Of a stretch of DNA of 64,000 bases, positions 7,903-25,086 are shown in pieces. This DNA comes from Acidimicrobiales bacterium. Its GTDB lineage: Bacteria; Actinomycetota; Acidimicrobiia; Acidimicrobiales; Bin134. Below the pieces are notes generated by a model. The model searched no databases. It saw nothing but the letters and a program-made list of their open reading frames with translations, and had not been told where the DNA came from. The stretch lies in assembly GCA_963663255.1 (NCBI GenBank), contig OY760141.1:1641580-1705579 (forward strand), in the 5' to 3' direction. How positions within the stretch are numbered: position 1 is the stretch's first letter; each line of letters begins with the position of its first letter. The translations under genes and the position numbers were made by a program.

Positions 7903-8017
7903 GCGTGGTCAGCCCCCGTTGTCGGCGTGAAGCGTTAACGGTTGGGGTCGACGCCCGGTGGTTCGTCTAGAATCGTCCTTCGGACCTGCCAGCAGGTAGT
8001 GAGCGAGGCGCAAGCAG

Positions 8018-8323
8018 GTGTATGCCGTCATCCGCACAGGCGGAAAACAGTACAAAGTGGAACAGGGCCAGGTCCTAGACGTGGAACTGCTGGGCGAGCC
8101 CGGCGCGGAAGTGGAGTTGACGCCGGTGCTGCTGGTGGACGGCGACTCGGTGACCGCTGCCCCCGAACAGCTCGGCAAAGCCACGGTCACCGCTACGGTG
8201 GTGGACTCGGTAAGAGACCGCAAGATCAACGGTTTCACGTACAAGAACAAGAGCAACCAGCGTCGGCGGTGGGGCCACCGCCAGCACAAGTCCCGCATTC
8301 GGATCACGGCCATCAAGGCCTAG
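8018..8323 (+). CDS. rplU: 50S ribosomal protein L21
   Basis: MYAVIRTGGKQYKVEQGQVLDVE is a canonical L21 N-terminus. rplU-rpmA-obg synteny. Confidence 0.95.
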   Translation: MYAVIRTGGKQYKVEQGQVLDVELLGEPGAEVELTPVLLVDGDSVTAAPEQLGKATVTATVVDSVRDRKINGFTYKNKSNQRRRWGHRQHKSRIRITAIKA

Positions 8324-8347
8324 TCCGAACGCTGAGGGGAGCTAGAG

Positions 8348-11035
<2,688 letters not shown>

Positions 11036-14154: not shown

Positions 14155-15069
14155 ATGAATTTTTCCTTTGCTGACGTCGACTCGGTGCGCAAGGGCCTGA
14201 GCGATGTGCAGTATCTGGCAGATGAGGGCATCGCCGGAGTGGTCTACCTGGCCGAGCGGCTGCAAAAGCCGGTGCTGGTAGAGGGTCCAGCCGGCACGGG
14301 CAAGACCCAGCTGGCCAAGAGCGTGGCCGAGGCCACCGGAGCCCGCCTGATCCGCCTCCAGTGCTATGAGGGCCTCGACGAGTCCAAGGCGCTGTATGAG
14401 TGGAACTACAAGAAGCAGCTGTTGCGCATTCAGGCCGAGCGCCAGGGTGGGGACCCCGAGGGCGATGGCATGTGGCAGCAGATCGAGGACGACCTGTTCT
14501 CTGAGGAGTTCCTGCTCACCCGCCCTCTGCTGGAGGCCATCAGAGCTGCCGAGCCAGTGGTGTTGCTCATCGACGAGGTCGACCGGGTGGAGATCGAGAC
14601 CGAGGCGCTGCTGCTGGAGATCCTGTCCGACTACCAGGTGTCCATCCCCGAGCTGGGCACGGTGGCTGCCAACCAGATCCCACTGGTGTTCCTTACATCC
14701 AACAACACCCGGGAGCTCTCAGAGGCCCTTAAGCGACGGTGCCTGTTCCTGCACATCGACTATCCCGACCTAGATCGGGAGAAGGAGATCGTGCTGGCCA
14801 AGGTGCCCGGCGTGGGCGAGAGCCTGGCCGACCAGGTGGCCCGCATTGTTCGATCGGTTCGCCAGATCGAGCTGAAGAAGGCCCCGTCGGTGTCGGAGAC
14901 CCTCGACTGGGCTCGCACGCTGGTGCTTTTGGGTGTGGAGCACATCGACGCCGACACCGCAGCCGAGACGGTGAACATCTTGTTGAAGTACCGCAGCGAC
15001 ATCGAAAAGGCACTCAAGGAGTTCGCCACCTCCGACGAGGACTTCGCGGTATCCGCCGCAACCCCGTGA
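14155..15069 (+). CDS. MoxR-like AAA+ ATPase (CoxD-like)
   Basis: Walker A GPAGTGKT. Walker B LLIDEVDR. LTSNNTRELSEALKRRC. Paired with a downstream VWA gene. Confidence 0.85.
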   Translation: MNFSFADVDSVRKGLSDVQYLADEGIAGVVYLAERLQKPVLVEGPAGTGKTQLAKSVAEATGARLIRLQCYEGLDESKALYEWNYKKQLLRIQAERQGGDPEGDGMWQQIEDDLFSEEFLLTRPLLEAIRAAEPVVLLIDEVDRVEIETEALLLEILSDYQVSIPELGTVAANQIPLVFLTSNNTRELSEALKRRCLFLHIDYPDLDREKEIVLAKVPGVGESLADQVARIVRSVRQIELKKAPSVSETLDWARTLVLLGVEHIDADTAAETVNILLKYRSDIEKALKEFATSDEDFAVSAATP

Positions 15070-15090
15070 TATTCCCGCGCTGAGCCTGCC

Positions 15091-16551
15091 ATGAAAGTCG
15101 AGCCCGCCACCTCGCCGCTGCTGGCGCTTCTGGCCGGGTTCATCTCAGAGTTGCGGGCCGCCGGGCTGCCGGTGAGCCTCACCGAAAACCTCGATGCCAT
15201 GGAGGCCATTCAGCACATCCCCATCGAGGATCGGGATGCCTTCAAGTACGCCCTGGCCGCCACCCTGGTGAAGAACCACGCCCACTGGCGGGCGTTCGAG
15301 ACCGTGTTCGAGGTGTACTTCTCGCTGCGGGGGCCGGAGTACGACCTAGTAGATGGCGAATGGCCCGAAGGCATGGACCTATCCGATTTCATCGACGGGT
15401 TGGACGGCCAGCAGCGCCGCCAGGGCGGAGGTGGCGGCGAGTCCATGTCGGCCGAACAACTCGCCGAAATGCTATTTCAGGCGCTCATGCGGGGCGATGA
15501 CGCCCTCATGCGGGCCATCGCTCGCCAGGCGGTGCAGCGCTACGCCGGTATGGAACCCGGACGCCCGGTGGGAGGCACCTACTACCTGTACCGCACACTG
15601 CGGAACCTGGACCTCGACGGAGTGCTGGAGCGCATGATGGACCAGGCCCGCCAGGACGCTCCCGAGCAGCTGACCCCGCTGGAGGAACGGCTAGAGCGAG
15701 ACGAGTTCGAAGCTCGAGTCGACCAACTCCGCAAGGAGGTGGAGGCCGAGATCCGCCGCCGGCTGGTGGCCGACCGAGGCGTGGAGGCCATGGCCAAGAC
15801 GCTGCGCAAGCCCCTGCCTGAGGACGTCGACTTCATGCACGCCAGCCGGGAGGAGATGATGGCCCTGCGCCGGGCCATCTACCCGCTAACCCGCAAGCTG
15901 GCCGTGAGGTTGGCCCGCAAACGCCGCCACGGCCGCAAAGGCCCGCTGGACTTCCGCAACACCATGCGCCACTCGCTGTCCTACGGCGGTGTGCCGGCCG
16001 AGCCCAAGTTCCGCTACCCCCGACCGGCCAAGCCCGAGATCATGGTGGTGGCCGATGTGAGCGGGTCGGTGGCCGCCTTCGCCCGGTTCACCCTGCACCT
16101 GGTGTACGCCATCAGCAACCAATTCTCCAAGGTGCGCTCGTTCGTGTTCATCGACGGCCTCGACGAGGTGACCAGCTTCTTCGAGGGAGTGGATGACATC
16201 GGCGAGGCCGTCCACCGAGTGAATGCCGAGGCCGACGTGGTGTGGGTGGACGGCCACTCCGACTACGGCCACGCCTTTGAGGTGTTCTGGGAGCGGTATG
16301 GCAAAGACGTCGGCCCCAAGACCACGGTGATGATCCTGGGCGACGCCCGCAACAACTACCACGCCTCCCAGGCCTGGATCCTCAAAGAGGTCGAACACCG
16401 AGCCCGCAAAGTGTTCTGGCTGAACCCCGAGCCCGGCGCCTACTGGGACACCGGCGACTCCATCGTCTCCGAATACGGCGTCCACTGCGACGGCGTCTTC
16501 GAAGTCCGCAACCTCCGCCAACTCGAAGGCTTCGTCGAAAATTTGGTTTAG
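15091..16551 (+). CDS. VWA domain protein (CoxE-like), partner of the MoxR ATPase
   Basis: C-terminal VWA with MIDAS-like VVADVSGSV. IMILGDARNN...WLNPE is typical of VWA_CoxE proteins. Confidence 0.75.
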   Translation: MKVEPATSPLLALLAGFISELRAAGLPVSLTENLDAMEAIQHIPIEDRDAFKYALAATLVKNHAHWRAFETVFEVYFSLRGPEYDLVDGEWPEGMDLSDFIDGLDGQQRRQGGGGGESMSAEQLAEMLFQALMRGDDALMRAIARQAVQRYAGMEPGRPVGGTYYLYRTLRNLDLDGVLERMMDQARQDAPEQLTPLEERLERDEFEARVDQLRKEVEAEIRRRLVADRGVEAMAKTLRKPLPEDVDFMHASREEMMALRRAIYPLTRKLAVRLARKRRHGRKGPLDFRNTMRHSLSYGGVPAEPKFRYPRPAKPEIMVVADVSGSVAAFARFTLHLVYAISNQFSKVRSFVFIDGLDEVTSFFEGVDDIGEAVHRVNAEADVVWVDGHSDYGHAFEVFWERYGKDVGPKTTVMILGDARNNYHASQAWILKEVEHRARKVFWLNPEPGAYWDTGDSIVSEYGVHCDGVFEVRNLRQLEGFVENLV

Positions 16552-16700: not shown

Positions 16701-17288
16701 TCAACGCAGGAGCACGGAGTTGCGCTGAGGTGGCCGGTAGGTATCCACCCCAGTTTCCGGGAACGGATCGGGCGGGGGTCGCAGGTCGTAGCGCCCGGTG
16801 CTCGGGCACTTGGCCACTTCCCAGCCGTCATCGTGGATGTTGTGGTGGCATCGGGCGCAGACCAGCACCAGGTTCTCGAGGTTGGTTGGTCCACCCCAAG
16901 ACCAGGGCTGGATGTGGTGCGCTTGGCACCAAGCGGGGTTGGCATCGCAACCGATGCAGCCCTTGTCCCGCAGCGCCAGCGCGGCCCGCTGGGCCTCGGT
17001 GGCGATCCGGCGCTTGCGGCCCAGCCACAGCTCCTGGGTCTTGGCCCGGAATACGCCGGGCAAGATGTCGGCGTCGCAGGCCAGGCGACGCAACTCGCCA
17101 ATCGGAATTGGGGTTCCGTCGCACAGCCGGGCGTTGATCAGCCGCGCCTTCTACCCGGAAAGCCGGGCCTCAGCACGCCGCACCGATGCCAACGCATCCC
17201 GCCGGTGGTCGCCCGACACATCCGCCGGGTCAGACACGGGTATCTCCAAAGTGACCTCAAACTCCCTGGTCACAGCCTCATTAGCCAT
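16701..17288 (-). pseudogene. Remnant of a DUF222/HNH endonuclease gene (13E12-repeat type), N-terminally truncated with an in-frame TAG
   Basis: The HNH region CIGCDANPAWCQAHHIQPWSWGGPTNLENLVLVCARCHHNIH is intact. The same frame continues upstream to ATG 17288 but is broken by TAG at 17151-17153. The ~300-aa DUF222 body is absent. Confidence 0.65.
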
Positions 17289-19064: not shown

Positions 19065-19751
19065 GTGGGCGGCATTGGGTGCCTAGCGTCGATAAACGTG
19101 CCCAATGGGAAATTGACTCAACCTGCGGACAAGATCAGGACGTTCATTGGTGGCCACCGGGATGCCGACCTTGTTGTCTGCACTGGGAACACGTCAGTCC
19201 GGGGGTTGGCTTGGTTGGCGGGTCAGGTAGACAGCAGCCAGAGGGTGACCATCGTCATTGGTGACATGCAGGGTCAGAGCTTCTCCAAAGCGAGCGAGGG
19301 CGATCGGGAAGCGGCGGCAGCTTTCCTCCGCCGGCCAAACGTGAAGGTGCACAACTGGTATCGGACGAAGCCGGAGAAGAAGATCGCCCACGGAAAGGCA
19401 GTTGTAGCTTTCCGCGAAAGAAGAGCAATTGCCGCCCTAGTGGGGTCGGCGAATCTCACGCATACAGGCCTCTACACAAACTTGGAGATGATGGTTCGCA
19501 GCGACCATGTGGAGTTGCCTGAGATAGAGGCGTATATCAATGAGGCGACTCGGCATCCGCCCGCCAACGAGAAGCTCATTGGTCTTGTGGCACCCACTCA
19601 GAAGGCGCCCGAGGAGGCTGCCGCCAACAAGGGCGGATGCCTACCGGCGTTGGTACTGGCCCCGGCCCTTGTTGCGGGGAGCATTTGGTACCGGACCAGG
19701 CTCTCTGTCTTCGCCAGGCGGTCACGAGTTCGGAAAACTCCCCGACTCTAA
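19065..19751 (+). CDS. PLD-family (single HKD) nuclease-like protein with C-terminal hydrophobic anchor
   Basis: HKD motif AHGKAVVAF...ALVGSANLTHTGL (nt 19389-19469). C-terminal hydrophobic stretch GGCLPALVLAPALVAGSIWY (nt 19632-19691) followed by an Arg-rich tail. The start is uncertain (GTG 19065; GTG 19098 is an alternative). Confidence 0.65.
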   Translation: MGGIGCLASINVPNGKLTQPADKIRTFIGGHRDADLVVCTGNTSVRGLAWLAGQVDSSQRVTIVIGDMQGQSFSKASEGDREAAAAFLRRPNVKVHNWYRTKPEKKIAHGKAVVAFRERRAIAALVGSANLTHTGLYTNLEMMVRSDHVELPEIEAYINEATRHPPANEKLIGLVAPTQKAPEEAAANKGGCLPALVLAPALVAGSIWYRTRLSVFARRSRVRKTPRL

Positions 19752-19794
19752 AAAACGCTCACCGCAGCGCGTCCACTACCAATTTGGAGAGTGG

Positions 19795-21042
19795 TCACAC
19801 GAGGGCCTGTGAACGTGCGGGCTCTTTTCGAACAGGGGCAGTCAAGGGGCTGATTTCGCGGACTCGCTGTCTGATCCAGGTGGCAGCCTTGGCGATTTCT
19901 GCGGTCACTTCGGTAGGCGGCCCGCTGAGATCGATGGCGAGAGTGTGGAGTAGCTTGCCGGCGTGCCTGACGGTGACAGTCCGTTCTGGACGCCCACCGT
20001 CGGCAAGGCAGTAGATCAGCAAGCCCTCGGGTAGGTCGAGCGCTGTTGCGTAGGCCAAGAGCTGGTAGTAGTCACTTGTTCGGGCCCGGGCGTCGTCGGT
20101 GAGCTTGTACTTGATGTCGGCCACATAGACCTCGTGGCCTTGCCTGCGGAACACCAAGTCGGGGCGGATCGGCACCTGTTGGCGAGTATCTAAGTGGCTG
20201 TTGACCTGATCCCGCACTTCTAGGTGCCCTCTCAAGGCGCGGCGTAGCCGCTGGGTGACGAAGTTCTCGAACAGCCGGTTCATGTCCACGACGAATGATG
20301 AGGCGGCGTGTTGGCCACGCTGGTCAGCCAGCGTCAGATTCTCCAGCAATAGCCGGGCTAGTCGCAGTACCGGCTGATAGTGGACATTCAGACGGGTTAT
20401 CGGTATTCGGTCCAAGTAGTCAGCCCGCATGAAATCGTCGGCCACATCTTCGAGGGAGGCGACCTGCTGGAGCAGCCGTCTCCGGTCCTCTGGATCGATC
20501 CTGGGCACACGCAGCGCCCGCCGAGTCGCCGCCTTCAGGTAGCGGTTCTCGGCTATGTCCGGCGTGTACTCGTCGTATCGGCATTCCACCGGCAAGGCGA
20601 CCCCTGCTTGGCGGAACTGGGCTGCCGTGTTGACGCGGCCCCGTAGCGCGACGAGCCGGTCTTCTTGATGCCGGTATGACCGCAGCAGCCCGCGGGCCAG
20701 GGTGGTTTCCAGAGTCCGGGCATAGAACGCAATCACCGACGGCAAGAGGTCAGCCCTATCGGCGTAGTCGAAGGCTTCCTGTCTCCATGCGTGTTCGTCG
20801 AGCCCCACTTCCAGCAGCAGAAAGAGGTTCTCTGGGCGGATCTTCGGGCGGATCAGCAATCGGAGATCGTCGACTACCAAAGTCCCCACGAGGTTCTGAG
20901 CGGTGATCGAATAGTTGTTGGTTTGGCCGGCGGGCTGAACCGTGATGATGCCTTTTCCTCTGGTGGCGAGGCGTTGTGCCTGCACCTGAGAGAGTTCGAC
21001 GATGGCCGTCTCGTACTCGATCAGCTGGATGATGTCGCTCAC
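19795..21042 (-). CDS. mcrC: McrC-like PD-(D/E)xK nuclease subunit of a McrBC-type restriction system
   Basis: GTG 21042 overlaps the upstream stop (GTGA). C-terminal motif IRPDLVF...EVYVADIKYK (D...D-x-K) is as in McrC. Size and position downstream of a McrB-like GTPase fit. Confidence 0.8.
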   Translation of the reverse strand: MSDIIQLIEYETAIVELSQVQAQRLATRGKGIITVQPAGQTNNYSITAQNLVGTLVVDDLRLLIRPKIRPENLFLLLEVGLDEHAWRQEAFDYADRADLLPSVIAFYARTLETTLARGLLRSYRHQEDRLVALRGRVNTAAQFRQAGVALPVECRYDEYTPDIAENRYLKAATRRALRVPRIDPEDRRRLLQQVASLEDVADDFMRADYLDRIPITRLNVHYQPVLRLARLLLENLTLADQRGQHAASSFVVDMNRLFENFVTQRLRRALRGHLEVRDQVNSHLDTRQQVPIRPDLVFRRQGHEVYVADIKYKLTDDARARTSDYYQLLAYATALDLPEGLLIYCLADGGRPERTVTVRHAGKLLHTLAIDLSGPPTEVTAEIAKAATWIRQRVREISPLTAPVRKEPARSQALV

Positions 21043-24000
21043 AGATCTGAATTCGACTCCGTGGTGAACTCGGGATCGGCCGCGGCTCTTTGAACGGCGG
21101 TCTCTTGCTCGGCCATTTCGGCCCGCCCCGACAGGTCGAGGTAGCGCTTGTAAACCTGATCGAAGCGGAAGTACTCGATTTGCTCGCGGTCGCCGAAGAA
21201 CTGGTCTTCGATGAACGGCTCGATGTTGTACTTCCAAATGCGACGCATCGCCTCCTCGTCGAGGCCTTGCTTCATGAAGTGGCTCGGCCCCAGCAGCAGG
21301 TGAGGCCCGCCCAATTCTCTGTCGAGTTCATCGTTGACTTGCGCGACGAGCTCGCCGACCCAGTTGGGCTCATCGTTCTCAGCCAGCCATCGCTCAAGCA
21401 GCCCTTCCATAGGCCACCGATTCGGGAAGAACGGGATGAAATGGAACCGGCGCCGCAGTGCAGCGTCCACGAGGGCGATGGAGCGATCGGCGGTGTTCAT
21501 TGTCCCGATGAACCACAGGTTTCGGGGAAGCTCAAACGTATCGTCGGGGCGGTAAAGGGTGCGCACGCTCTCGTCGCGGTACTCCAACATAAACAGCAGC
21601 TCGCCGAACACCTTGGGCAAATTGGCCCGGTTGATCTCGTCGATGATCATCACGTGCCGTCGGCCGGCGGAATCTGCGGCCCTCTGTGCCATGTCCGCTA
21701 AGGGACCGGGTGTGAGCTCGTAGATCATGTCGCCGCCGTCAGCTTGGGGTCGGTACCCCTCGAAGAAGTCCTCATAGGAACTTGAAGGATGGAACTGAAC
21801 CAACGCCCTTTGCCCCGGATCAGGTGCCAGTACCCTGGCAAGCTCCCGAGCCAGGTAAGTCTTCCCCGTCCCCGGCGGCCCATAGAAGATCACCTGCCCC
21901 TTGTCTTCCAGCAATTTGACGATGTCCTCCAAGAATCCGGGGTCAACCAACAATTTCTCTGCCAATACGCCTAGCGGGTCGGTCGTACCCTCCTCCAGAG
22001 TCAATTGCCACTGATACCAATAGAGGAACTGCGACATTCCCCAGGGGTCGTCAGGAAAGAATGGTGCAAGGCGATCGCGTAGAATCCTGTTGGATTCCAC
22101 GTGAACTTCGCCGCGCGAACCAGTGGGTTCGTCGAGCCCGATTAGGGCGAGCATCGCGCGCTTGCCTTTTTCTCCGCCTTGGGGGTAGACGCAGAGGTAT
22201 TTGTAGGGGTGTGTGATGGCTAGCAGTTTCATGATTACCGATTCGCCCAGACCTTTGATGCGAAATTGATCGTCCATGAGCAGCCGGTCGATGCGCTCCG
22301 CGTCAGAGTCGTCGCCCCAGCACAGATAGCGGAGGGACTCCATCATGCGGTCATACTCCGATTCGTCGGCTTCGTTGAACGACCTATTAAGCAGTGGCAT
22401 GGGCCCGGTGCCTCCGTATCCACCTCCACTCCAGATCCGGCGGATTTCAGTGCGTTCAGCTAGGGCTATTGACTCAGGCTTGAGCATTCCCGCAAATCGG
22501 CGCTGTTCGGCTCTGTGGTCTTCATCCCAATGCCTGGGATATCCCTCCTCAGTTCGGAATTTATTGACAAATGAAGCGATTGGATCGCCATCTCCCGTAG
22601 GCGGCACCAGTGGTTCTCCCGTTGCCCTGGCCAACAGCTCATCAAACAGGGGCTTCAGCAACACGGCCACTTCCAGAACTGTTGCCGCAAGGTCAATTCT
22701 GTGGAACTCGTCGCGTTCGAACCATCGGCCATAAACGAACTCCCCGCGCCGTCCGTAGAAGCCAACGTCGTCCCCGATTCGGGACTCGGCGCCGCCTAGC
22801 ACGCGGCAGTCGGGGTAGTCGGCGGCCTCAAGAATTGGCGCTATTTCGTCCCACCATCCTTCGCGAACTAATCCAGGGCGCAGGGCGACAGCGGCACCCC
22901 GGTCATTCACCCACACGCGGATGCCCAAGCCGGACACATTCTTGGCGTTCCAGTCCACCCATAGATCAGCTCTGGGGTAGGTGGGGGTCCAGTCGAGTGG
23001 GGGTTTGCCCACTGTCGTTTCCCGGTCAAGTGCTGATGTGACTTTCTCTACAAGCTGGTCGCCCCAGAACTTTGCGATGCTAACCATTGCCCGGGCATTG
23101 GCCTCCCGCTCAGCTGTCGACGCGCCCTCAGCGTCGAGGCCCAACGTGACTCGCTCAGACAGCACGTCATCTATGAACACCGGGCGCTCGCTATGCCACC
23201 ATGCGGCGGTCGTCTCAAACTCGACATGGTCGGAGGTAAGTTCCCGAACCCTCTCGACAAACACCCGATACCGCTCGGGAGGACCACCTGGGAGGCTCTC
23301 ACCGGTAGAGAACTCAATGAAGCGGGCAGCACTTGGCCAAATCACCGGCCAGCGTTCCCTGTCAGCGAGCGCCCAGAAATATGACAAGAGGAATGGCACA
23401 TTGCCTGGGGCCGGGTGCGATCCCACTTTGACGCTCTTGACGTGTTCTACAACTCTCTGAATCTTGGTGACTGCCTCTTCATCGGATGTCGGCGTAGCCA
23501 GTGAATCTGCCAGCAGTATTGCTAGCCCGTGATGGTCTTCGGACCGATTGACGAGTTGGTTCAGCATCATCTGACCACTCTGACCCTTGAACGCCAAGGT
23601 TCCGGGCTTGCGCGACCACACTTCCATCCGTTCTTTGAACGATTGCACGTCGCCTGCGCGGCGGAGCTCAGCCAACAGCAACAAAGCTTCGTCCGCGCTT
23701 GCGTCAAACCCGTCAGTAGCTGCCTTGGCCTCTTGGTAGTGGTCTTCATCCGCAAGGAATCTCGCAGCATGCGCCTCGTACCACATCTGTCGGAACTCAA
23801 GTTCGGCAGGCGAGACCTGCCCTGGGTGCGCGGCACCATCGATAGTGCTGCCCGTATGGGTGTCCAGGTAATTCCTGAGGGTTTGGCCGTCTTCGTTCTT
23901 CCACTTGTCATACCCATACATCCGTCTGCCGCTGAGAATGCATGTTGCATAGGTAGGAGTCTTGAAAGGGGTGTCCCGGGTCAGCACCAAGCGGTCGCCA

Positions 24001-24236
24001 TCAATCTCGAAGGCGCCTTCCTCAACCAGGCAGTCCCGACCTGCTTGGTATGGTCTGCCCGGCGCCCCGAACGCCGGTGTCGTCTCGACACGCCCTACCG
24101 CACCGGCCTGAACAAGGAAGCGTCCATCTGGGAGTGGCCTGCCCGTGCCCTCACAGCCTGAGAGGTCAAGACGGAAGACCGGGCTGCCGTCTGAGGGGTC
24201 TGGTTTCGTTTCTATCTGATCAGTCACTCCGAGCAC
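21039..24236 (-). CDS. McrB-like AAA+ GTPase with long N-terminal extension (DUF4357-like domain plus an unassigned ~630-aa region)
   Basis: Walker A FYGPPGTGKTY. Walker B VMIIDEINRANL. McrB GTP-specificity motif GTMNTADRS. RRRFHFIPF. N-terminal segment GRFLVQAGAV...TPFKTPTYATCILSGRRMYGYDKWKNEDGQTL resembles DUF4357. The start is GTG 24236 or 24227; the listed 24389 start overlaps the toxin ORF. Confidence 0.85.
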   Translation of the reverse strand: MLGVTDQIETKPDPSDGSPVFRLDLSGCEGTGRPLPDGRFLVQAGAVGRVETTPAFGAPGRPYQAGRDCLVEEGAFEIDGDRLVLTRDTPFKTPTYATCILSGRRMYGYDKWKNEDGQTLRNYLDTHTGSTIDGAAHPGQVSPAELEFRQMWYEAHAARFLADEDHYQEAKAATDGFDASADEALLLLAELRRAGDVQSFKERMEVWSRKPGTLAFKGQSGQMMLNQLVNRSEDHHGLAILLADSLATPTSDEEAVTKIQRVVEHVKSVKVGSHPAPGNVPFLLSYFWALADRERWPVIWPSAARFIEFSTGESLPGGPPERYRVFVERVRELTSDHVEFETTAAWWHSERPVFIDDVLSERVTLGLDAEGASTAEREANARAMVSIAKFWGDQLVEKVTSALDRETTVGKPPLDWTPTYPRADLWVDWNAKNVSGLGIRVWVNDRGAAVALRPGLVREGWWDEIAPILEAADYPDCRVLGGAESRIGDDVGFYGRRGEFVYGRWFERDEFHRIDLAATVLEVAVLLKPLFDELLARATGEPLVPPTGDGDPIASFVNKFRTEEGYPRHWDEDHRAEQRRFAGMLKPESIALAERTEIRRIWSGGGYGGTGPMPLLNRSFNEADESEYDRMMESLRYLCWGDDSDAERIDRLLMDDQFRIKGLGESVIMKLLAITHPYKYLCVYPQGGEKGKRAMLALIGLDEPTGSRGEVHVESNRILRDRLAPFFPDDPWGMSQFLYWYQWQLTLEEGTTDPLGVLAEKLLVDPGFLEDIVKLLEDKGQVIFYGPPGTGKTYLARELARVLAPDPGQRALVQFHPSSSYEDFFEGYRPQADGGDMIYELTPGPLADMAQRAADSAGRRHVMIIDEINRANLPKVFGELLFMLEYRDESVRTLYRPDDTFELPRNLWFIGTMNTADRSIALVDAALRRRFHFIPFFPNRWPMEGLLERWLAENDEPNWVGELVAQVNDELDRELGGPHLLLGPSHFMKQGLDEEAMRRIWKYNIEPFIEDQFFGDREQIEYFRFDQVYKRYLDLSGRAEMAEQETAVQRAAADPEFTTESNSDL

Positions 24237-24277: not shown

Positions 24278-24580
24278 CTACTCGGTGGCCTTGGGGTGGC
24301 CGGTGTGGACGGCGGTCAGCCAGACGGTTTTCCTGTCGTCGTCGATGCAATACCAGATGCGGCCACCGCCGGTGACCTCGTATTGCCATTGGGGTAACGC
24401 CACGCCATTGATTGTGTGTGTGGACAAGTCGTCCTTTAGTGGCTTCTGGCGACTATCCCATCGCCGAGGATCTGCGGTGATGAGTTCCCACGCCTTTCTG
24501 GTGTTATTGGGGGCGGCGGCGCTGAGCCGCTCCCAGGATTTGGCCGCGTCATTGCTGGCGAAACGGCAGTCCCACCCGCC
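24278..24580 (-). pseudogene. RelE/ParE-family toxin-like ORF without a canonical start codon
   Basis: 100-codon open frame ending ...LPQWQYEVTGGGRIWYCIDDDRKTVWLTAVHTGHPKATE*, a typical RelE/ParE C-terminus. An in-frame TAG sits at 24581-24583. No ATG/GTG/TTG occurs until codon ~52. GTG 24575 is one nucleotide out of frame, next to a G-run. Confidence 0.55.
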
Positions 24581-24621: not shown

Positions 24622-25086
24622 TCAATCGACGGCCGGGGGAGGAAGGACGCGACGGCCGTCAGTCACCGTGATAGGGGCGGTGAGAAGGGCAGTGAGCTCA
24701 GGATCGCTGAGGATCTCAGCTGTATTTTGCCAAGAGTCGATAGTGAGGTCGACTTGTTCAAAGTTCCCAACACTGGCAGAGGCGAGAATGATCCGCGTCA
24801 GTTCCTCGGCAAATTCGCGACGTCCATCGCTGGAGAGGAATTCGACCCAGGGGAAGGCGGACTCAACGGCGTCATCCATTGCCTCGGGGGAGTCAGCGGA
24901 AATCTTGCAGAGAAGGCGAGCCAGACACTCGATGGTCTTGGCCCGGCTGATGTCTTTAGCAGCGAGGCTGAGGTATAGATCAGGAGCGTTGCGGCGGCGC
25001 AGCACTACGTCGTGCTGCGCGAGATCTGCCACTACCTCTTTAGGTTGTCGGAGGAACTCGGAGAAGGTGCGCTCGATTACCTGCAT
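24622..25086 (-). CDS. Phd/YefM-like antitoxin with extended C-terminal domain (putative)
   Basis: N-terminus MQVIERTFSEFLRQPKEVVADLAQHDVVLRRRNAPDLYL resembles prevent-host-death antitoxins. It lies 41 nt upstream of the toxin-like ORF, and palindromic operators sit upstream. Confidence 0.5.
   Translation of the reverse strand: MQVIERTFSEFLRQPKEVVADLAQHDVVLRRRNAPDLYLSLAAKDISRAKTIECLARLLCKISADSPEAMDDAVESAFPWVEFLSSDGRREFAEELTRIILASASVGNFEQVDLTIDSWQNTAEILSDPELTALLTAPITVTDGRRVLPPPAVD

Follow-up and report, generated by a model that had tools for sequence, protein, structure and literature searches.

A McrBC-type operon of an Acidimicrobiales bacterium whose McrB carries a modular arm of candidate DNA readers

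We describe a two-gene mcrB-mcrC operon in a 64,000-nucleotide stretch of the genome of an Acidimicrobiales bacterium (GenBank assembly GCA_963663255.1, contig OY760141.1, positions 1,641,580 to 1,705,579 of the forward strand; this whole stretch is called the window below). The McrB homolog carries a non-canonical N-terminal arm of ∼750 amino acids (aa), in which three candidate readers, each recognized solely by its fold or domain family, are stacked on one GTPase motor. We think it reasonably probable that the operon specifies a GTP-dependent, Type IV-like McrBC system with a modular arm that reads non-canonical bases. McrBC nucleases are among the most common Type IV restriction systems, and their target is set by the reader domain; to our knowledge, only a handful of McrB readers have been characterized. 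An earlier note on this DNA, made from the letters alone, had drawn attention to the operon and its long arm, and we report below where its claims held and where they needed revision.

The mcrB and mcrC genes

The mcrB-like gene lies on the minus strand (21039..24227) and is translated from GTG 24227 into a protein of 1062 aa (P0001), with its stop codon at 21039-21041. Another candidate start, GTG 24236, lies three codons upstream and would yield 1065 aa; the shorter form is the gene-caller's, and residue numbers throughout are those of P0001. A longer, ATG-initiated open reading frame (ORF) that extends up to 24389 is unlikely to be in use because it runs into the end of the toxin-like remnant upstream. 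Residues 750-1062 (21042..21980, minus strand) constitute the McrB GTPase, an AAA+ domain plus lid. The earlier note had called this C terminus McrB-like and had pointed to its GTPase motifs, and the searches bear it out: Pfam AAA_5 matches with an E value of 7e-22, the AAA+ domain of E. coli McrB (6hz4) aligns with residues 762-1017 in a search of PDB sequences (E value of 2.9e-42), and McrB_lid (PF28529) is a precomputed domain on P0001. The Walker A motif GPPGTGKT occupies residues 783-790, the Walker B motif IIDEINRA residues 861-868, the loop MNTADRS residues 910-916, and RRRFHF residues 925-930. The NCBIfam McrB equivalog model gives 138 bits (E value of 2.8e-40), far under its cutoff of 637 bits; the window protein is therefore a homolog, not an equivalog, of the McrB of E. 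coli K-12 (EcoKMcrB).

The mcrC-like gene (19795..21042, minus strand) starts with GTG and encodes 415 aa. Its product matches PF10117 (E value of 6.9e-55) and NCBIfam McrC (E value of 9.6e-26) and has an intact nuclease motif, RPDLVF...ADIKYK (D...D-x-K), at residues 293-313. The TGA of mcrB and the GTG of mcrC overlap as GTGA, which we read directly as ctGTGAgc, so the earlier description of the downstream gene, with its D...DxK motif and its overlap, was accurate, and the two genes are translationally coupled. Right after the mcrC stop codon, a pattern scan marked a terminator-like hairpin followed by a T-run (19755..19770, minus strand; a consensus match only), the probable end of the operon; the scan found no more promoter and terminator sites in the region than in shuffled sequence. 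The pseudogene reading of the pair is ruled out by the intact motifs and the conserved orthologs. We regard it as very likely that the two genes encode a functional McrBC-type nuclease.

Architecture of the N-terminal arm

We modeled residues 1-767 with AlphaFold2, using a family alignment (A1) of 77 members as input. The model has a mean predicted local distance difference test (pLDDT) score of 89 and a predicted template modeling (pTM) score of 0.67, and its low-confidence stretches are confined to linker-like residues 1-10, 127-135, and 542-545. It contains four folded units: a β-rich unit with helices (residues 16-126), an all-helical unit (136-400), an α/β unit (401-540), and another all-helical unit (549-748). 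We call the first unit the head, the second and third together module A, and the fourth module B. The earlier note had put the non-canonical region at ∼800 aa and had left most of it unassigned. It was right that the region is non-canonical and that ∼600 aa of it belong to no family, but the arm is nearer 750 aa, and the unassigned part proves to be made of well-folded modules with YktB-like and HhH-GPD-like folds.

Residues ∼130-750 gave no match in Pfam, NCBIfam, or PADLOC, none in the PDB by sequence or by profile, and none among the viral structures of BFVD; the middle region, including module B, had no tblastn match in plasmid or phage collections. When PDB sequences were searched, the McrB proteins of E. 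coli and Thermococcus gammatolerans aligned through the AAA+ part only, and no reader-domain-only entry was retrieved. A Foldseek search with the arm model, which the earlier note had proposed, returned no McrB reader domain among the 50 listed matches. Across the PDB sequence and Foldseek searches, the arm did not match DUF3578, YTH, PUA/EVE, or B3-type readers.

The head (residues 16-126; 23850..24182, minus strand) is a β-rich DUF4357/RAMA-like domain, with block-averaged pLDDT values of 71-94 in the model. We know of no experimental determination of the specificity of RAMA or DUF4357 in bacteria. Scanned as an isolated domain, the head matches DUF4357 (PF14267) with 42.0 bits, above the 38.4-bit cutoff, in line with the DUF4357-like start that the earlier note had proposed; scanned within the whole protein, it scores 38.1 bits, just below that cutoff. 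The C-terminal domain of PADLOC PDC-S14 matches residues 14-124 (E value of 2.4e-16). Head residues of three homologs (P0113, P0135, and P0117) have weak, sub-threshold matches to RAMA (PF18755; E values of 2e-4, 5e-4, and 0.04; cutoff, 35.2 bits), and the window protein itself has no RAMA match in Pfam. RAMA is a predicted reader of N6-methyladenine (m6A) that is fused to many restriction nucleases (URI, T5orf172, ParB, and HNH) and to McrB-like AAA+ proteins (PMC4738411). DUF4357 occurs in fusion with GmrSD and GIY-YIG nucleases, has a list of partners like that of RAMA (PMC4619093), and counts among the frequent fusion partners of McrB GTPases (PMC11090510). The fusion of DUF4357/RAMA to McrB is thus already known in kind. 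The window protein has the head of the published fusions (PMC4738411, PMC11090510) and differs from them in the ∼600 extra residues, modules A and B, that separate this head from the motor.

Module A combines an all-helical part (residues 136-400; 23028..23822, minus strand) and an α/β core (residues 401-540; 22608..23027, minus strand). The helical part, with helices modeled between residues 140 and 400 at pLDDT values mostly above 90, belongs to no database family. In a Foldseek search with the whole arm model, the sole significant match was 2a8e, the Bacillus subtilis protein YktB (DUF1054/UPF0637), with an E value of 3.3e-3, a probability of 1.00, and a template modeling (TM) score of 0.64 when normalized to the 210-residue target over 212 aligned columns. 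The Foldseek output did not include the aligned query residues, and we placed the match on the α/β core and its flanking helices by inference, because this is the sole α/β unit of that size in the arm and because two homologs, P0148 (547 aa) and P0180 (607 aa), carry just that subregion before the motor. Judging from the model, the last helices of the helical part probably belong to the YktB-like unit as well. DUF1054 was not among the best 25 of the 26 Pfam families retrieved at E values up to 10, and 2a8e was not retrieved by profile search; module A is a fold relative of DUF1054 and not a member of the family. YktB is its best structural match with no similarity at the sequence level, and whereas YktB is a small stand-alone protein, its counterpart here follows a helical domain and is fused to a restriction motor.

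Conservation within module A is strong at aromatic and polar positions. In the 77-member alignment, W285, W293, W297, Y320, W343, R359, and N377 are invariant, and R419, D421, W423, D425, W426, R437, W439, Y499, R501, and W502 are nearly so; residues 275-540 (266 aa) contain 13 Trp. We propose the α/β core as a candidate specificity pocket. That module A represents a previously unrecognized class of reader, of modified nucleobases or of DNA structure, is a tentative suggestion that we would put forward as possible rather than probable.

Module B (residues 549-748; 21984..22583, minus strand) is all helical and resembles HhH-GPD glycosylases. Modeled alone, it reaches a pLDDT of 94.4 and a pTM of 0.91. 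HhH-GPD glycosylases account for every one of its top 46 listed Foldseek matches in the PDB: MutY, EndoIII, MIG, Ogg from bacteria and archaea, and OGG1 from human and mouse. The Tm1821 Ogg ranks first (probability of 0.95, TM score of 0.46). The module contains a helix-hairpin-helix-like motif, RIKGLGESVIMKLL (IKGLGES, residues 657-663), whose central Gly is invariant in 142 module B sequences; R645, K667, G688-K/R689, N713, and D727 are its invariant polar residues. By motif inspection and not by superposition, Ser/Glu (GLGES) stands where EndoIII has its catalytic Lys (GVGRK), and the Asp usually found at a set spacing after the hairpin is not evident, an invariant G-K/R being there instead. 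On this reading, the canonical catalytic Lys and Asp seem to be missing from module B. In the END nucleases, the recognition of hypermodified phage DNA appears to be determined by inactivated EndoIII/Ogg domains (iEndoIII; PMC12191111; bioRxiv 2025.03.31.646159), which are also reported fused to McrB-like GTPases (PMC12191111). On the basis of its modeled fold, module B is a good candidate for the iEndoIII class. A word-index search with a module B profile retrieved 13 short proteins only, all in an McrB context and none with a PLD or NucS fusion; that search, therefore, gives no link between module B and the END nucleases.

Modularity and divergence in the McrB subfamily

The earlier note had called for a survey of homologs and their neighborhoods, and this survey found the arm across a whole subfamily. 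A word-index search with residues 1-770 retrieved 105 clusters at 90% identity, largely from metagenome-assembled genomes (MAGs) of Acidimicrobiia, including Candidatus Poriferisocius; they are annotated as "McrB family protein," "DUF4357 domain-containing protein," or "AAA family ATPase." When the middle region (A2, 550 positions) served as the profile in an exhaustive search, at least 615 clusters (50% identity) reached E values of ≤1e-3, and 114 of these reached ≤1e-30. A scan of 185,579 species genomes, one per species, returned 31 loci; the scan was pattern based and undercounts loci. They are patchily distributed, nearly all in Acidimicrobiia (Poriferisocius, Aldehydirespiratoraceae, and Spongiisociaceae), along with the cultured Pseudonocardia spirodelae DW16-2. 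McrC is encoded directly downstream of the McrB homolog wherever a related locus extends far enough to hold it.

Domain hidden Markov models applied to 251 family proteins resolved the following architectures, with N denoting the head and AAA the motor: A-B-AAA in 81 proteins, N-A-B-AAA in 29, A-AAA in 22, B-AAA in 4, B-B-AAA in 2, and N-AAA in 1, besides many fragments. Every Pfam-checked family protein long enough to hold an McrB motor has one, and among the best 150 of the 615 profile matches, no module A or B fused to any other effector was found. The B-AAA proteins are ∼525-535 aa long, with module B as the sole N-terminal domain. Other heads can precede module B: Mrr_N in P0206 and P0272 and DUF8426 in P0267 and P0268. 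P0206 and P0219 have two tandem copies of module B in one McrB, in P0206 behind the Mrr_N winged helix. Two homologs of 1400-1430 aa (P0161 and P0169) have a further N-terminal extension of ∼500 aa before modules A and B, with no Pfam match. At the opposite extreme is P0105, an McrB of canonical size (468 aa) from the orthologous site on the chromosome. Its DUF4357 head directly adjoins the motor, without the ∼600 aa of modules A and B, exactly the published head-plus-motor layout; P0105 was found in two independent assemblies (L035, 3590-6240; L036, 1974-4294), each with a 415-aa McrC following. Thus, the head and modules A and B recombine, P0105 having the head only and most members lacking the head and keeping A and B, and we therefore regard them as interchangeable, additive heads on a constant motor.

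A few loci depart from the single-gene form. In L034 (2240-7148), the arm is split: a 339-aa gene product containing DUF8426 and the N-terminal two-thirds of module B is followed by a 601-aa McrB, a 77-aa ORF, and a 552-aa McrC. This organization recalls the three-gene McrBC-like systems LlaI and BsuMI (bioRxiv 10.64898/2026.08.31.748284); in those, the LlaI R1 reader has an unrelated fold and a methyltransferase accompanies the system, whereas in the window, reader and motor are one polypeptide. In L028 (8273-9318), the McrB homolog is broken within module A by an insertion of ∼1 kb that encodes a 328-aa protein which, by eye, resembles a transposase, and in L014, the gene is broken up as two ORFs (7956-8330 and 8352-10871).

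The arm diverges faster than the motor. Averaged over pairs across the whole family, the motors share 74% identity and the arm modules 49-56%. The same holds among the three tandem McrB paralogs (A-motor, A-motor, and A-B-motor) that precede a single McrC in locus L026 (3159-12019) of a Candidatus Spongiisociaceae MAG (OZ241842.1): their motors are 92-94% identical, the helical parts of module A 57-87%, and the α/β cores, the fastest-diverging part, 42-58%. A motor that is kept while the module A core diverges is the pattern expected of specificity domains, and by analogy, the arm modules appear to behave like the readers of modification-dependent nucleases.

Genomic context of the operon

The operon lies in a low-GC stretch (G+C of 0.58-0.62, against about 0.65). 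On one side are NUDIX, Methyltransf_24, HNH remnant, and MoxR/VWA genes; on the other are a toxin-antitoxin remnant, glyoxalases, and a sulfotransferase. Our comparison of this context draws on the loci of the homologs. Two of these, L001 and L002, whose McrB proteins are 84% and 60% identical to that of the window, respectively, share its gene order: two glyoxalase-family genes, an antitoxin-like gene, mcrB, mcrC, NUDIX, Methyltransf_24, DUF222-HNH, and the MoxR/VWA pair.

Convergent with the operon is a gene for a PLD-family (DrmC/Nuc-like) protein of 228 aa (19065..19751, plus strand), which matches PLDc_2 with 27.1 bits, has weak similarity to RE_NgoFVII and DrmC, and shows HxK...GSxN in translation. 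Phe replaces the Asp of its HxKxxxxD motif. Its C terminus consists of a hydrophobic stretch, GGCLPALVLAPALVAGSIWY, possibly a membrane anchor, followed by a basic tail, and its ortholog in L001 has the same length of 228 aa. Of the 31 species-level loci, 5 have the gene adjacent to the operon, one of these with the gene upstream of mcrB; all 5 belong to the syntenic group of the window. The syntenic locus L002 lacks it. This adjacency in only 5 loci rules it out as a core component; the PLD gene is a facultative neighbor and not a conserved partner. We likewise rejected DISARM, of which only the DrmC-like PLD gene is present, with neither DrmA nor DrmB (DUF1998) among the neighbors of the locus.

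Upstream of mcrB, an antitoxin-like gene of 154 aa (24622-25086, minus strand) has a weak DUF6247 match and, by eye, a Phd/YefM-like N terminus. Between it and mcrB lies a 49-aa remnant (24278-24427, minus strand) that ends in ...WYCIDDDRKTVWLTAVHTGHPKATE and resembles the C terminus of a RelE/ParE-type toxin. The toxin appears to have decayed in the window, since the syntenic L002 keeps an intact pair of 154 and 114 aa. Beyond the PLD gene, a truncated DUF222-HNH endonuclease of 130 aa (16701-17093, minus strand) retains the last ∼40 residues of DUF222 and the HNH domain; its relatives at that position are 310-436 aa long, and at 11 of the 31 loci, the McrBC operon is bordered by DUF222-HNH genes. 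The pair encoding a MoxR-type AAA ATPase (304 aa) and a VWA_CoxE protein (486 aa) occupies 14155-16551 on the plus strand and is kept in L001 and L002.

Discussion

The E. coli K-12 McrBC (EcoKMcrBC) and the T. gammatolerans McrBC provide the frame for a proposed mechanism. The window system resembles both in its GTP-specific AAA+ motor (Walker A and B, MNTADRS loop, and lid), in its two-gene operon with an McrC composed of a finger domain and a PD-(D/E)xK nuclease, and in having its reader N-terminal to the motor. It departs from them in the reader itself: theirs is one domain of ∼160-185 aa (DUF3578/SRA-like in E. coli, YTH in T. gammatolerans), and the arm described here has four units over ∼750 aa, with no match to either. 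In both model systems, McrC-stimulated GTP hydrolysis is followed by translocation and cleavage (PMC7680126; bioRxiv 10.64898/2026.08.31.748284). On this scheme, residues 750-1062 of the window McrB would form the ring of the GTPase motor, and McrC would act as its activator and as the PD-(D/E)xK nuclease. Each protomer would extend an arm of independently folding and independently shuffled modules that recognizes foreign DNA carrying methylated or hypermodified bases. Module B, which adjoins the ring, might hold the duplex by its helix-hairpin-helix and probe flipped-out bases in the manner of an inactivated glycosylase, without excising them; module A and the RAMA-like head could supply further or alternative specificity. 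DNA-bound McrB hexamers would then recruit McrC, which would stimulate GTP hydrolysis and, after translocation, cut the DNA, and the host would thereby restrict modified invaders.

Parts of this scheme have precedents. The diversity of McrB readers and the iEndoIII-McrB fusions are already in the literature. The END nucleases (PMC12191111), like module B, have an HhH-GPD-like domain without evident catalytic residues on a defense effector. The likeness is one of fold only; the window protein adds two further candidate readers, and the END proteins that were studied by experiment have a fused PLD or NucS-like PD-DExK nuclease as their effector (PMC12191111), whereas the PLD gene here is an occasional neighbor. 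As both the head and module B have published precedents, the probable target can be narrowed by analogy to non-canonical or modified DNA bases, where the earlier note had held that what the arm senses could not be predicted. Its view that the target recognition part is new needs qualifying: no characterized McrB reader was matched, but there are the DUF4357/RAMA-McrB and iEndoIII-McrB precedents, and the subfamily has at least 615 clusters. Module A with its YktB/DUF1054-like core appears to be undescribed so far, as does, in a sizeable subfamily centered on Acidimicrobiia, a single motor bearing three stacked candidate readers. We rejected an assignment to the CoCoNuT branch, whose clades are described with an NxD signature (PMC11090510): the signature here is NxxD (MNTADRS), long coiled coils and a cold-shock domain (CSD) are absent from the model, and the operon is a plain two-gene one.

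Several observations weigh against a modified-base-reading arm. The fold matches of module B are weak, with a best E value of 0.024, none reaching 1e-3, and TM scores of 0.46 at most; hhalign of module B against an EndoIII alignment (the E. coli Nth sequence used is 100% identical to 2abk) gave a probability of 0.1, and nine diverse module B sequences had no HhH-GPD or OGG-like Pfam match at E values up to 10. The YktB assignment of module A rests on one PDB match, and our literature searches on DUF1054 and YktB returned no functional data, so that this fold gives no hint of the ligand. The arm modules are all acidic (isoelectric points of 4.8-5.2), unexpected for a simple DNA-binding domain; their charge is uninformative, however, because the whole protein is acidic. 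Last, the operon occupies a conserved chromosomal site in related genomes and is therefore less mobile than many defense genes.

Some of these observations would also suit modules A and B as a scaffold or regulatory arm, active in oligomerization, autoinhibition, or the sensing of a phage protein or DNA structure, with any modification being read by no part other than the DUF4357 head, if it is read at all. The occurrence of module B behind several heads (Mrr_N, DUF8426, and module A) would fit a constant adaptor beside the motor, as would its lack of a sequence link to glycosylases and the acidity of the arm; P0105, in turn, suggests that the motor can work with a DUF4357 head alone at the same locus. 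We nonetheless consider a purely structural arm unlikely, mainly on account of the architectures: most members (81 A-B-AAA plus 22 A-AAA proteins) have no DUF4357 head, so that A and/or B must supply target recognition there, and in the B-AAA proteins, module B is the only N-terminal domain available. The divergence of module A between tandem paralogs with a conserved motor and the restriction of the listed fold matches of module B (top 46) to DNA-base-flipping enzymes also speak against such an arm.

It is a good deal less probable that module B is an active DNA glycosylase that first excises the modified base, with McrC cutting at or near the abasic site. The HhH-GPD fold matches are compatible with such an activity, the invariant R645, K667, G688-K/R689, N713, and D727 could form an unconventional active site, and DNA glycosylases are known as antiviral defense enzymes (Hossain et al., as cited in PMC12191111); yet motif inspection finds GLGES in place of GVGRK and no Asp at the usual distance, and the closest published analog is an inactivated domain (PMC12191111). 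Least credible, in our estimate, is an RNA-targeting or housekeeping role, by analogy with CoCoNuT or with chromosomally fixed genes, for although the locus is syntenic in related Acidimicrobiales genomes (McrB 60-84% identical) and the cellular YktB family has no known DNA link, the NxxD signature, the lack of long coiled coils and of a cold-shock domain, the plain PF10117 McrC, the low-GC setting with toxin-antitoxin and HNH remnants, the patchy distribution, and the disruption of one copy by an apparent insertion sequence element all speak against it.

If the arm recognizes only ordinary methylation, the system would be one more McrBC variant. Either way, the subfamily is a natural modular test bed, in which one motor is combined with one, two, or three candidate readers and a head-only variant is at hand, and the L026 paralogs, which differ mainly in module A, are a natural specificity-swap series. 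Work on it could define a new reader fold, could test whether inactive glycosylase domains, when linked to a motor that translocates, serve as sensors of hypermodified DNA in general, and could yield new modification-dependent nucleases as reagents. Should module A prove to be a reader, it would offer the first functional clue for the DUF1054 fold, and three different readers (RAMA-like, YktB-like, and inactive-glycosylase-like) on one motor would let Acidimicrobiia, including sponge symbionts, respond to a broad range of phage DNA modifications.

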